DNA of 64,000 nt, taken from NCBI GenBank assembly GCA_001003605.1, contig LCPL01000010.1:1528-65527 (forward strand), written 5' to 3'. Both the position numbers and the translations under genes were made by a program. The notes below the pieces were generated by a model that was given only the letters and a program-made list of their open reading frames with translations, did no database searches and was not told the origin of the DNA. The DNA comes from Parcubacteria group bacterium GW2011_GWC2_48_17 (GTDB lineage: Bacteria > Patescibacteriota > Minisyncoccia > Phycocordibacterales > UBA10002). This document shows positions 4,071 to 6,644 of this stretch, piece after piece (within the stretch, counting starts at the first letter, position 1; each line of letters starts with the position of its first letter).

Positions 4071-4790
4071 TTGAAAAACAACATAGACTGGAAGCAGTTC
4101 GGACAGTTTCTTAAAATGGTGGTAGATTTGTTCAAAATCATCACCACAACCTTCAAAGAGCAGAAAACCGGTCCGGAGATTCTTGAATGGATTACCGGCG
4201 CGGGCCAGAAGGCTTTTGCGGAGAAGTTTTTAGTACCGCTTGGCGAGGCGTACCAAGCTCACCTTCAGAGGGAGCAGAAACGGGAGAAGCCGGAGCCGCT
4301 TCGCATGAAGGCCAACCTCAATGCCGACCCCTCGCTTCCATTTGACGGAGCGAAGTTTGAAGGCAACAAAGGTGAGAAACATCTTCGCCAAGGCGAGGTG
4401 GAACTGGAGTATCGTTCGGATGAAGACGAACTGTATGTGAACAGACGAAATCTCGTTCCGTTCTTATCAGACAAACAGCTCGATGGAAAGACCGTGAAAG
4501 GATTCAAACTTCATCCCGAAGCCGAAGCGAACAGTCCCACGAACGCAACGCTGGCTGATGTTCTGTATGCGCATCAGGAATTCATTCCGAAGAAATATCG
4601 AGACAGAGTATGGTTTTTCTGGGCGACGATTTTCAGCGGCGCGGACGGCAACCTCTTTGTCCGGTCTCTCTACTGGGGTGGCGAGCGGTGGAGTCGGGGC
4701 TACGTTTGGCTCGGCGACGACTGGTATGAGCGCGACCCGTCGGCTTCGCTCGCAAAGCAGAACTTAGACCTTGAGGTTAAGTCCTTTTGA
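4071..4790 (+). CDS. DGR variable target protein, C-type-lectin/FGE-like fold with C-terminal variable region
   Basis: C-terminus ...WFFWATIFSGADGNLFVRSLYWGGERWSRGYVWLGDDWYERDPSAS... overlaps the VR; variable codons correspond to AAC/AAT in the TR. Confidence 0.8.
   Translation: MKNNIDWKQFGQFLKMVVDLFKIITTTFKEQKTGPEILEWITGAGQKAFAEKFLVPLGEAYQAHLQREQKREKPEPLRMKANLNADPSLPFDGAKFEGNKGEKHLRQGEVELEYRSDEDELYVNRRNLVPFLSDKQLDGKTVKGFKLHPEAEANSPTNATLADVLYAHQEFIPKKYRDRVWFFWATIFSGADGNLFVRSLYWGGERWSRGYVWLGDDWYERDPSASLAKQNLDLEVKSF
4631..4755 (+). repeat. DGR variable repeat (VR), 125 bp
   Basis: 108/125 identical to the TR; all 17 mismatches sit opposite TR adenines; the last 21 nt are identical and GC-rich (IMH-like). 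Confidence 0.9.
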
Positions 4791-5121
4791 ACTTGAGACC
4801 TTAGTACTTCCCCGATTTTGTCAGTGATGACAAGGTTGGGGATTTTTGTTATCCTACAGATGATAGTAGGTGAGCATCAGTACGGGTTTACGGATTCGTA
4901 CCACCGAATTCAGTATCCATACATTGAGAGCGTTTAGAATCAGGGTTCTAAGCGGAGGATGTATGCAGACACTTCACAAAAAGATGAAGCTACTTGGTAT
5001 GAAGCACTAAGGCATTAAACCCGGTAAGTGAATCAAAAAATTCGTCTGCTGAATGAGATGCCGAAGACTTTCCAGCCTTTCGAGTACTCGGGAGGCGGTG
5101 GCACAGATGGTGCTTCATATG

Positions 5122-5246
5122 TTTCAGCGACGCGGACGGCAACCTCTATGTCCGGTATCTCTACTGGAATGGCAAGCAGTGGAATCGGAACTACAATTGG
5201 CTCGACAACGACTGGAATGAGCACAACCCGTCGGCTTCGCTCGCAA
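5122..5246 (+). repeat. DGR template repeat (TR), noncoding
   Basis: Invariant copy that keeps the adenines; in the VR reading frame it encodes AAC/AAT-rich ...NGKQWNRNYNWLDNDWNEHN... Confidence 0.9.
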
Positions 5247-5252
5247 CTCTCT

Positions 5253-5675
5253 TCATTTCTCCGCCCCGACTTTTGTCGGGACGGAGTTTTGCTTGATGAG
5301 CTGATTATGCCAACCGCCGAGTTGTTGCCCTGCGCCCGCAAGCGGTTCTGACACGGCAACATACTTCTTGGTATCAATTGATTTGAGTTCCCAGCTTACA
5401 TACAAAAATACTTTTGCTGTATCCAATTTAACGATTGCCTTATGCACAAACGGCCGCTTCTGTTCTTTTGGGAGAAATACTGCTGTGAGAGCGGCCTCAA
5501 TTGTTTCAACAAGGAGAGTGTCGATCTTTTCTCCGAGAGAGTATTTGGTTTCTTTCGGAAAGAGGCGAAGAGTCTCATGCCAGAGCTTGTAAGCGGCAGT
5601 GAGTTTTTCTACCACTGGCAAAATCCGTAGGGGGGGGGTATTCTTTTGTGTATGGGACGGATTCAATTCACGCAT
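5253..5675 (-). CDS. avd: Avd-like accessory variability determinant (four-helix-bundle, TIGR02436-like)
   Basis: ...WHETLRLFPKETKYSLGEKIDTLLVETIEAAL...GQQLGGWHNQL matches the FPKEEKYSLG...GW family pattern; the true start is probably downstream of the C9 tract, for example TTG near 5600. Confidence 0.55.
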   Translation of the reverse strand: MRELNPSHTQKNTPPLRILPVVEKLTAAYKLWHETLRLFPKETKYSLGEKIDTLLVETIEAALTAVFLPKEQKRPFVHKAIVKLDTAKVFLYVSWELKSIDTKKYVAVSEPLAGAGQQLGGWHNQLIKQNSVPTKVGAEK

Positions 5676-6644
5676 ACCTATGAGGAAATTATTTCTGTTG
5701 AAAATCTACTGGAGGCGTGGAAAGAGTTTAAGCGGGGAAAGGCGAAAAAAGAAGAAGTGCAAAGGTTCCAGCTTCGACTCATGGAGCACATCCTAGCGCT
5801 CCATCGAGACTTACGCAATCGAACCTACACACACGGGCCATACAAACATTTCAGAATTACCGACCCGAAACCACGAGACATTCATAAAGCGAATGTGCGC
5901 GACCGCTTACTTCACCATGCGCTCTACCGGAAACTCTATCCGTTCTTCGACCGCACTTTTATTGCCGATTCATTCTCCTGCCGATTGAAAAAGGGAACGC
6001 ATAGTGCGATGAACCGCTTCCGTGCCTTTGCGTACCAAGCGAGCAAGAATCACACGCAGACCTGCTTTGCGCTCAAGTGTGATATACGGAAGTTCTTTGC
6101 CAACATTGACCACGAGATTTTGTTCTCGATTCTTTCCATCTACATTCCCGATACTTCTATACTGATGCTCCTTAAAAATATCGTGGAGAGTTTTACAAGC
6201 GGAAAAACGGAAGCAGGCCTCCCCCTCGGCAACCTTTCGTCACAGCTTTTGGTGAATATCTACCTAAACGAGTTTGACCAATTCGTGAAGCACCGGCTCA
6301 AAGTGAAATACTACATTCGTTACGCTGATGATTTTGTTATTCTTTCCCATGGTAAAAGTCGGTTGGAAAGAATAGTACGATATATCGTACTATTCATGCG
6401 CGAGAGATTGAGACTTGAACTTCATCAAGGCAAAGTCTTCATCCACACCATTGCCTCCGGCGTTGATTTTCTCGGTTGGGTGCATTTTCCCAATCATAGG
6501 GTGCTTCGGACGAGTACAAAAAAGCGAATGTTCCGGCGTTTACAGGAAGCACCAAGCGAAGAAGTGGCCATCTCCTACCTCGGACTGCTTTCGCATGGAA
6601 ATGGGGCTCTACTACAAAAAAGGATACGCGAGAGTTATAGTTAG
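5646..6644 (+). CDS. DGR reverse transcriptase
   Basis: ENLLEAWKEFKRGKAKK N-terminus, IRYADDFVIL RT motif and length near 330 aa; the first ATG is at 5652, while the track start at 5646 is TTG. Confidence 0.9.
   Translation: MCMGRIQFTHTYEEIISVENLLEAWKEFKRGKAKKEEVQRFQLRLMEHILALHRDLRNRTYTHGPYKHFRITDPKPRDIHKANVRDRLLHHALYRKLYPFFDRTFIADSFSCRLKKGTHSAMNRFRAFAYQASKNHTQTCFALKCDIRKFFANIDHEILFSILSIYIPDTSILMLLKNIVESFTSGKTEAGLPLGNLSSQLLVNIYLNEFDQFVKHRLKVKYYIRYADDFVILSHGKSRLERIVRYIVLFMRERLRLELHQGKVFIHTIASGVDFLGWVHFPNHRVLRTSTKKRMFRRLQEAPSEEVAISYLGLLSHGNGALLQKRIRESYS

Follow-up and report, generated by a model that had tools for sequence, protein, structure and literature searches.

A complete B3-type diversity-generating retroelement in a groundwater Parcubacterium, with a conserved structured RNA next to its template repeat

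The locus described here occupies positions 4071–6644 of the window, which is the whole 64,000-nucleotide stretch of DNA analysed, from Parcubacteria group bacterium GW2011_GWC2_48_17. It comprises a target gene that ends in a variable repeat (VR), a template repeat (TR) preceded by a structured RNA domain, an Avd-like gene on the opposite strand and a reverse transcriptase (RT) gene:

4071–4790, + strand: target (variable protein) gene, 239 aa from TTG 4071 in the ORF list, with the VR at its 3' end
4631–4755, + strand: VR, encoding target residues ~187–228
4735–4755, + strand: IMH-like segment of 21 nt, G+C-rich, equal to the TR 3' end at 5226–5246 (ACCCGTCGGCTTCGCTCGCAA)
4809–4848, + strand: terminator-like hairpin (15-pair stem) and T-run after the target gene
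4827–4855, + strand: promoter-like site, ATGACA-17 nt-TATCCT with TG (consensus match only)
4862–5121, + strand: conserved structured RNA domain of ~260 nt directly 5' of the TR, from covariation
4862–4911 and 4918–4965, + strand: RNA helices P1 and P2 (RNAalifold)
4982–4990 and 4991–4997, + strand: RNA box 1 and the invariant UACUUGG
4997–5008 with 5109–5120, + strand: RNA helix P3, adjoining the TR
5011–5015 with 5058–5062, + strand: RNA helix P4, with a 38-nt loop insertion in the window's strain
5075–5079 with 5092–5096, + strand: RNA helix P5
5122–5246, + strand: TR, from ungapped comparison with the VR at offset 491
5247–5258, + strand: post-TR linker, CUCUCUUCAUUU
5259–5286 and 5287–5294, + strand: post-TR G+C-rich hairpin, then U-tract
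5253–5615, − strand: Avd-like accessory gene, 120 aa from GTG 5615
5630–5638, + strand: poly-G tract (G9) separating the divergent starts of avd and RT
5639–5644, + strand: −10-like hexamer TATTCT, immediately after the G tract and 7 nt 5' of the RT ATG
5652–6644, + strand: diversity-generating retroelement (DGR) RT, 330 aa (RVT_1, E 3.8e-23)

Exact ungapped comparison of the two repeats gave 108 identical positions of 125, the same figures as reported in an earlier reading made from the sequence only. All 17 mismatches fall on an A of the TR and none on C, G or T, as that reading had also stated, although its count of A>G changes must be raised from 12 to 13, the others being three A>T and one A>C. 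With 32 A among the 125 bases of the TR, the hypergeometric probability of such a distribution is 1.4e-12. In the target frame the TR translates as FSDADGNLYVRYLYWNGKQWNRNYNWLDNDWNEHNPSASLA, with 31 of its 32 adenines at codon position 1 or 2 and nine AAC/AAT codons, which bears out the earlier description of these codons, and the 17 changes are spread over 14 codons, every one non-synonymous. The homology ends abruptly at both sides. No mismatch is found 3' of 4734, and the last 21 nt are identical in VR and TR, GC-rich and IMH-like, as previously noted; their role as an IMH is suggested by analogy with the Bordetella phage DGR. The lack of any non-adenine difference between VR and TR argues for recent homing. 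A scan of both strands of the window, using only the non-A positions of the TR, found no second VR-like copy.

The target is annotated in GenBank from ATG 4116 as a hypothetical protein of 224 aa (UY03_C0016G0010), and the N-terminus KIDWKQFGQFLKMV, which lies 5' of this start, is common to 17 close homologues. The protein had no match in Pfam or NCBIfam, and a profile search at E<=1e-3 recovered 2271 cluster representatives. In a family alignment of the target, variation is found exactly at the TR-adenine codons. The hairpin at 4809–4842 was considered as a BPP-1-like IMH cruciform and rejected; with its T-run and a distance of 53 nt from the VR, it is more simply the terminator of the target gene.

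The RT had previously been described as a protein of about 330 aa with IRYADDFVIL and a DGR-type N-terminus, and this agrees with the ORF of 330 aa that starts most likely at ATG 5652 and holds both IRYADDFVIL and ENLLEAWKEFKRGKAKK; the GenBank call is a truncated form of 287 aa. Its best match among PDB sequences is the 328-aa RT of 8ub7–8ube (E 1.1e-41; group II intron RTs reach 2e-21), placing it closest to the Bordetella phage DGR RT. The [I/L]GxxxSQ motif (LGNLSSQ) and YxDD catalytic site (YADD) of the DGR clade are both present, aligning with IGSLTSQ and YMDD of the 8ub7–8ube chain, and equivalents of K29, F66, R74, I76, G182 and Q187 are kept. The residue numbering agrees with bRT I181/G182/Q187 (Handa et al., bioRxiv 10.1101/2023.10.23.563531). 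At E<=1e-20 the RT has more than 8000 homologues in the Candidate Phyla Radiation (CPR).

The Avd-like ORF does contain the FPKETKYSLG...GGW segment noted earlier, but it lies on the minus strand, which is a correction to that account, and with the G9 tract it is open up to ATG 5675 (140 aa). Its sole matches, both below cut-off, are Pfam bAvd (E 4.6e-7; 30.7 bits where the cut-off is 40) and DivGenRetAVD of NCBIfam (E 2.7e-14; 53 bits for a cut-off of 80), with alignments that begin at about residue 19–23 of the 140-aa ORF, and a search against PDB sequences returned nothing at E<=1. In relatives bAvd is called at the same position on the same strand, and these are also the position and strand of the B3 avd in the available text of Wu et al. 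2018 (PMC5758913). Poly-C as avd coding sequence was rejected, since the tract varies in length between loci without a 3n periodicity and lies ahead of the start of the Avd profile.

The locus is thus read as a complete chromosomal DGR of the kind found in CPR/Patescibacteria, arranged as in architecture B3 (target - TR - (avd, opposite strand) - RT), at a probability of roughly 0.93. The earlier claim of a complete DGR with adenine-specific TR to VR mutagenesis is supported by the TR/VR tabulation, the RT and the Avd-like ORF, and about 60 related CPR loci carry the same cassette, with A-only mismatches and a TR that ends ~400 nt before the RT. It could be argued that the repeats are an ordinary duplicated gene fragment under normal mutation, beside an RT from a group II intron or retron, and the top-scoring NCBIfam RT model is indeed a group II intron RT/maturase, at 144.6 bits for a cut-off of 300 (retron RT model, 54.5 bits, cut-off 235). 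This explanation is refuted, however, by the TR/VR tabulation, in which 17 of 17 differences lie on the A of one copy and nearly all at codon positions 1 or 2, by conservation of the arrangement in ~60 loci, and by the PDB comparison, where a DGR RT is the best structural relative by 20 orders of magnitude in E-value. The Rfam searches of the window revealed no intron or retron RNA family, there is no maturase/X-domain context, and the probability left to a duplicated fragment is negligible.

As a DGR the locus is ordinary, since its layout is the standard one known for ultra-small groundwater (CPR) bacteria; the available text of Wu et al. 2018 (NAR 46:11, PMC5758913) gives the B3 target-TR-(avd)-RT layout as the CPR norm, with 90% of CPR DGRs. 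According to the same portions of that source, the B3 DGRs have target, TR, inverted avd and RT arranged and oriented as in the window's locus. They also share with it one VR at the C-terminus, TR codons rich in AAC/AAT and a host among groundwater Parcubacteria, and do not differ from it in gene content, whilst a target without a recognisable domain resembles their 'UVR' or ungrouped CPR targets. The DGR itself adds little, given that CPR genomes are known to be rich in exactly such cassettes and that this genome comes from the same groundwater data set in which they were surveyed. It can serve as a clean and fully assembled reference, and its small target family (>2000 clusters) is uncharacterised.

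The structured RNA domain 5' of the TR has 55 pairs, 41 of them with compensatory changes (RNAalifold, 21 loci); 95.7% of cells are paired, and covariation scores 0.629, whereas slid controls do not exceed 0.174. A covariance model of the modelled 3' half of the RNA matched 79 of the 84 sequences searched, with 22 of 24 pairs covarying across the 79. On the other side of the TR, a hairpin with a T-run was found within 70 nt in 55 of 62 loci, as opposed to 5 of 42 downstream of the VR and 3 of 186 windows chosen at random, and all 55 stems are distinct, with inner pairs that covary. Handa et al. (bioRxiv 10.1101/2023.10.23.563531) describe an 'Avd-binding stem-loop just downstream of TR', to which this hairpin corresponds. 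The linker at 5250–5258 is complementary to box 1 (4982–4990), a pairing that gives 360 paired cells in cognate loci and 340.9 +/- 2.9 in shuffled ones. Upstream, the promoter-like site at 4827–4855 would be placed to start the TR RNA near 4862, and a TAnAnT box is kept at the same place in 22 related loci.

Rfam 15 gave no family for the whole window at the gathering threshold and only noise for 4780–5700 at E<=10. This absence from Rfam would suit an independent small RNA, or a leader regulating a neighbouring gene, outside the retroelement RNA, but such an origin is improbable, as the modelled half occurs once per DGR locus in the 79 matching sequences, always on the RT strand and ending exactly at the TR start. 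P3 abuts the TR, compensatory changes accompany the pairing of box 1 with the post-TR linker, and the domain travels with the DGR cassette into different genomic contexts, which all speak for its being part of the retroelement RNA. Comparable elements are the RT-associated RNA motifs RT-1 to RT-19, of which RT-10 is located in the spacer between TR and RT of BPP-1 (Weinberg et al. 2017, PMC5737381); these are likewise structured RNAs beside bacterial RT genes, at least one within a DGR, but the window's 4780–5700 segment has no Rfam 15 match.

The DGR of Bordetella phage BPP-1 consists of mtd-VR, avd, TR, Sp and brt, and a bRT-Avd-RNA structure has been described (bioRxiv 10.1101/2023.10.23.563531; NAR 2018, PMC6182149). 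Both systems show adenine-specific TR to VR transfer, homologous RTs (E 1.1e-41) with conserved template/dNTP-contacting residues, a partner that is of the Avd family or, here, Avd-like, a stem-loop immediately 3' of the TR (in BPP-1 the Avd-binding element), and a TR predicted to loop out between two duplexes. They differ in that avd precedes the TR in BPP-1, both sharing a strand, but is inverted and downstream here, and the target is a phage tail fibre in BPP-1 and a 239-aa protein in the window. Further differences from BPP-1 are the U-tract behind the post-TR hairpin, the position of the large conserved structure 5' of the TR, and the duplex at the TR 5' end, P3, which uses upstream rather than downstream sequence.

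In front of the RT, 59 of 62 loci have a tract of G6–G14 in this position, and a count over 83 loci gave 77 runs of at least seven G on the RT strand, spread over 74 of them, against three C runs. The tract is G8 or G9 among assemblies of the window's lineage and G9, G10 or G11 in a sibling lineage; contig breaks occur at it, and these length differences could be sequencing or assembly artefacts. Directly after the G tract a TAnnnT is found in 30 of the 77 cases, against a background of 1.5%; the −10-like hexamer may act as a promoter and give a leaderless RT mRNA. Phase variation by homopolymers in promoter spacers occurs, for example, in the poly-G/C tracts of Neisseria porA/opc and the C-stretch of Bordetella fim. 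As in those systems, −35-like and −10-like hexamers are separated by a long G:C homopolymer, the length of which varies among the assemblies of one strain, although a clean TAnnnT stands beside only 30 of 77 tracts.

Four things are observed directly, and a mechanism can be built on them: the anatomy of the locus, the restriction of its TR/VR differences to adenines, the cassette's conservation and the turnover of the VR in the sibling lineage. A stand-alone non-coding RNA would be transcribed from ~4862, with the ~260-nt structured 5' domain followed by the 125-nt TR, the 12-nt linker and the hairpin, which probably binds Avd and, with the U-tract, would end the transcript near 5290. The RT and the Avd-like protein would copy the TR into cDNA, misincorporating opposite adenines, and this cDNA would replace the VR at the 3' end of the target gene, with the identical 21-nt IMH-like end as the 3' boundary of replacement. 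Up to ~20 residues could be recoded in this way; they would share a face of a small C-terminal domain with a possible, distant likeness to C-type lectins. For priming chemistry, transcript ends and promoter roles, the model follows Bordetella phage biochemistry.

The RNA structure and the G tract exist and are conserved; what we propose for their roles is a tentative joint reading, somewhat more likely to fail than to hold, in which CPR B3 DGRs use a 'permuted' DGR RNA and, separately, RT expression is gated by a slippage-prone poly-G promoter spacer. In the permuted RNA, the ~260-nt domain 5' of the TR would supply the priming nucleotide, stop duplex and RT-binding structure, which lie 3' of the TR in Bordetella phage. 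The TR would be clamped as a loop between P3 and the box-1:linker helix, and the transcript end may be a dual-purpose Avd-binding hairpin and terminator. The poly-G spacer, in front of a putatively leaderless RT mRNA, would gate RT expression and therefore hypermutation itself, which, if true, would make the mutator phase-variable. The structured RNA 5' of the TR, the terminator-like hairpin after it and the poly-G/−10-like box before the RT appear to be undescribed so far. The available text of Wu et al. 2018 (PMC5758913) makes no mention of a structured 5' RNA domain, post-hairpin U-tract or poly-G tract, and a literature search on DGR-associated homopolymers gave no DGR paper among its top matches. 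The RNA domain, the terminator-like Avd hairpin and the poly-G tract matter more than the DGR, as testable handles on two open questions, namely how cDNA is primed in the most abundant class of environmental DGRs and how their activity is switched.

VR heterogeneity at TR-A positions over an invariant TR, to be expected from the sequence-only reading, was found in the sibling lineage but not in the window's own. In the former, from the same aquifer (L013–L019), the TR is identical in seven contigs and there are three VR alleles, all of whose differences, whether from the TR or among themselves, lie at TR-A positions; the DGR family is therefore active. All assemblies of the window's lineage, which come from several samples, carry one and the same VR allele at the level of consensus contigs. 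An exact A-to-N pattern scan of JGI metagenome contigs for VR variants of this strain returned one contig, with identical VR and TR, and the 90% protein cluster of the target held start-site variants only.

The single allele, set against the three of a sibling lineage that co-occurs in the same samples, may indicate a structurally intact but silent or fossil DGR, formerly active and with its VR now fixed, e.g. with RT or Avd expression off; the G-tract length, G8 or G9 between assemblies, could set expression. We regard this as unlikely, though a serious contender, because the RT, Avd-like gene and TR are intact, and drift would erode both the absence of non-adenine differences over 125 nt and the identity of the IMH, whilst low-frequency variants would be invisible in consensus contigs. 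The TR of the window's strain is itself identical in all assemblies except for a C>A change at 5229 in one of them (L009).

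The element is a diversity-generating retroelement (DGR) that works as such systems do, and within DGRs it is of the B3 type common in the Candidate Phyla Radiation (CPR). The variable repeat (VR, 4631–4755) and template repeat (TR, 5122–5246) form a 125-nt direct repeat at an offset of 491 on direct comparison, and the same pair is the top family in repeat-finder output for the window. The sequence-only reading had placed all differences at TR adenines, and this was borne out by ungapped comparison, with A in the TR at 17/17 mismatches (32 A among the 125 TR bases; hypergeometric p = 1.4e-12); its counts of A>T (3) and A>C (1) were also correct, whilst A>G changes number 13 rather than 12. 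Nearly all TR adenines (31/32) sit at codon positions 1 or 2 in the frame of the target gene, CDS 4071–4790, and the 17 VR changes fall in 14 codons and are non-synonymous throughout. The final 21 nt of both repeats are identical, as had been noticed previously, and homology breaks off abruptly at both ends. No further VR-like copy was found in the 64 kb, on either strand, by a scan scoring non-A TR positions only. In contig L009, from the same strain, there is a C>A change within the TR at the equivalent of window position 5229, in the IMH*-like part, where the VR retains C; either the TR is polymorphic here or the assembly is in error.

Two further protein-coding features accompany the target gene:

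TTG 5646 / ATG 5652 to 6644, plus strand: reverse transcriptase (RT) ORF, RVT_1 match (E 3.8e-23)
5253–5675, minus strand: Avd-like ORF, with Avd models as its sole matches (Pfam bAvd, E 4.6e-7; NCBIfam DivGenRetAVD, E 2.7e-14)

The best solved-structure relative of the RT is the 328-aa 'Reverse transcriptase' of 8ub7–8ube (E 1.1e-41; group II intron RTs reach 2e-21). In alignment with the window RT this chain has IGSLTSQ at 181–187, and it was taken as the Bordetella phage DGR RT (bRT) because this fits the numbering of bRT residues I181, G182 and Q187 in the bRT-Avd-RNA preprint (Handa et al., bioRxiv 10.1101/2023.10.23.563531). The window RT keeps the equivalents of bRT K29, F66, R74, I76, G182 and Q187, with I181 replaced by L. 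For the Avd-like ORF proposed near the RT, both model matches are under the curated cut-offs and start ~20 residues into the ORF; its opposite strand had been left unstated, and it has no sequence match in the PDB. The target protein has no match in Pfam or NCBIfam, and a profile of 17 close homologues retrieved 2271 cluster representatives (E ≤ 1e-3), most of them 200–250 aa long, with all of those bearing any name being 'hypothetical'. In some long target relatives (P0147, P0148, P0166, P0174 and P0203; 341–804 aa) the C-terminal domain that bears the VR is matched 3–4 times in tandem, and these may be multi-domain or multi-VR targets. GenBank holds the exact target ('hypothetical protein') and RT ('RNA-directed DNA polymerase') under Parcubacteria group bacterium GW2011_GWA2_47_64, with N-terminally shortened starts (target 224 aa vs 239, 4071–4116; RT 287 aa vs 330, 5646–5785), and this public annotation does not label the locus as a DGR.

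RT homologues number >8000 at E ≤ 1e-20, and all named ones are from Patescibacteria. Among 80 related loci fetched from GTDB species genomes, 59 have a VR-TR pair with ≥80% of mismatches at adenines in the downstream copy; most of the remaining 21 have too little upstream flank. In these relatives the VR lies ~450–500 nt upstream of the TR, the TR ends ~400 nt ahead of the RT, and an avd homologue is found between TR and RT on the opposite strand. This layout is architecture B3, TR-(avd)-RT, which in Wu et al. (2018; PMC5758913) makes up 90% of the CPR collection and hardly ever occurs elsewhere, so the window element is a standard CPR DGR. The DGR finding is correct but ordinary, and the added anatomy described below lifts its value modestly. 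At L002:4301–5700 (Candidatus Taylorbacteria SIBZ01000032.1), a 173-aa target homologue (P0017) occurs with a stretch that weakly matches the model of the RNA upstream of the TR (5011–5115, E 3.4e-6), with no RT or avd called nearby and no clear TR/VR repeat, and this looks like a decayed cassette.

The closest sibling cluster, with a target 75% identical, contains 8 protein variants differing almost only within the VR. Seven contigs of the sibling lineage, which occurs in samples that also contain the window's strain, share an identical TR and carry 3 VR alleles, which differ from the TR (at 12, 13 and 15 sites) and from each other at TR adenines only. These alleles give direct evidence that DGRs of this family undergo turnover. 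The window's strain has one VR in every assembly found (at least 22 contigs with identical protein), its 90% protein cluster holds two variants only, both start-site, and a scan for the A-to-N pattern matched one JGI contig with the same VR. The lack of any non-adenine difference between VR and TR argues for recent homing in this strain, in which the DGR may or may not still be active.

Several non-coding features surround the TR and the RT start:

4862–5121 (~260 nt), plus strand: conserved structured 5' domain, between the target terminator (4809–4848) and the TR
4982–4990, plus strand: box 1, conserved AAAUGAAGA (window AGAUGAAGC), directly 5' of an invariant UACUUGG
4997–5008 with 5109–5120, plus strand: P3, a long-range 12-bp helix abutting the 5' end of the TR
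5259–5286, plus strand: G+C-rich post-TR hairpin, 12 nt after the TR, followed by UUUUGCUU
5630–5638, plus strand: poly-G tract (G9), flanked by the avd start (GTG 5615, minus strand) and the RT start codon (ATG 5652)

The 5' domain starts right after a promoter-like site (ATGACA-17-TATCCT, 4827–4855). RNAalifold predicted 55 pairs across 21 loci, 41 with compensatory double changes; 95.7% of cells were paired, compared with 80.6% in shuffled controls, and the covariation score of 0.629 was reached by 0/500 shuffles and compares with ≤0.174 for slid partners. A covariance model of the domain's 3' half (109 positions) matched 79 of 84 sequences searched, with a single hit per sequence that lies on the RT strand and stops where the TR starts, and 22/24 pairs covary in these 79, in an alignment that was fitted to the model and so is biased towards the structure. 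No Rfam 15 family matches, the motifs RT-1 to RT-19 of Weinberg et al. (PMC5737381) among them. In Bordetella phage DGR RNA the elements for priming and RT binding sit 3' of the TR; here the domain may provide them.

A hairpin with a T-run was found within 70 nt after the TR in 55/62 loci, after the VR in 5/42 and in 3/186 random windows. It starts most often 13 nt past the TR, and the 55 stems are all distinct, with inner pairs that covary. The hairpin itself is already known, since Handa et al. describe the Avd-binding element as a stem-loop immediately 3' of the TR and predict it in 207/278 DGRs, those of CPR included. What differs is the U-tract that follows it in 55/62 CPR loci; with this tract the hairpin (within 5247–5294) resembles an intrinsic terminator of the TR RNA, suggesting that it would also end the TR transcript ahead of an antisense run into avd. 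On the minus strand, the DNA of 5247–5294 codes for the C-terminal end of the Avd-like ORF together with its stop codon.

Box 1 and the post-TR linker UCUUCAUUU (5250–5258) are complementary. Cognate loci gave 360 paired cells, compared with 340.9 ± 2.9 when shuffled (the observed value reached by 0/1000 shuffles), and compensatory changes occur in several loci, such as AAAUAAAGU:ACUUUAUUU and AAACGAAGA:UCUUCGUU. This pairing is a candidate long-range interaction, not proven, in which the TR would form a loop clamped between P3 and the box 1:linker helix. The TR of phage DGR RNA is likewise proposed as a loop between two helices (Handa et al.), but the CPR element has its partner strands upstream of the TR.

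At the site equivalent to the poly-G tract, G6–G14 is present in 59/62 loci with poorly conserved flanks, and among 83 loci there are 77 runs of G≥7 on the RT strand vs 3 C runs. TAnnnT immediately follows the tract in 30/77 cases (background 1.5%), and in the window G9 abuts a −10-like TATTCT (tract and hexamer 5630–5644), 7 nt ahead of the RT ATG, with 7 nt past the hexamer also being the modal position of the RT start codon across loci. A −35-like (C)TGGCA(A) lies 17–18 nt upstream. This arrangement fits TAnnnT as a −10 box, a leaderless RT mRNA and the G tract within the promoter spacer. Tract length differs across assemblies of one strain (G8/G9 in the window's lineage, with scaffold gaps or contig ends falling at the tract; G9/G10/G11 in the sibling) and affects the avd and RT ORFs that gene callers predict, the called Avd switching among 120, 140 and 82 aa (5615–5675). 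These differences may reflect a slippage-controlled promoter spacer, or may be a homopolymer sequencing artefact.

No description was found of the 5' domain, the U-tract that follows the Avd hairpin, the pairing of box 1 with the linker or the G tract in the part of Wu et al. (2018) consulted, Handa et al., Weinberg et al. or Rfam; the analysis of Handa et al. covers no more than 40 nt upstream of the TR and 100 nt downstream. Priority for these four features is uncertain.

The description of the surroundings as a 'glycan-biosynthesis island' is right in a descriptive sense, with asparagine synthase, GT1, GT2 and GT47-like glycosyltransferases, sugar epimerases/dehydratases and methyltransferases encoded around the cassette (window 1–22000). 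Sibling cassettes (L001, L013–L019) adjoin either a tRNA synthetase gene and genes for ribosomal proteins or toxin-antitoxin genes; the glycan setting is thus not conserved, and the cassette with its four parts evidently moves as a whole. Beyond the IMH, the identical G+C-rich 3' end of the repeats, target 3' tails (window 4756–4805; L021–L100) carry periodic CTTnG-type repeats as imperfect hairpins (window 4772–4803, −7.4 kcal/mol). Nothing of the kind follows the TR, and these repeats may be the counterpart of the phage target-recognition hairpin.
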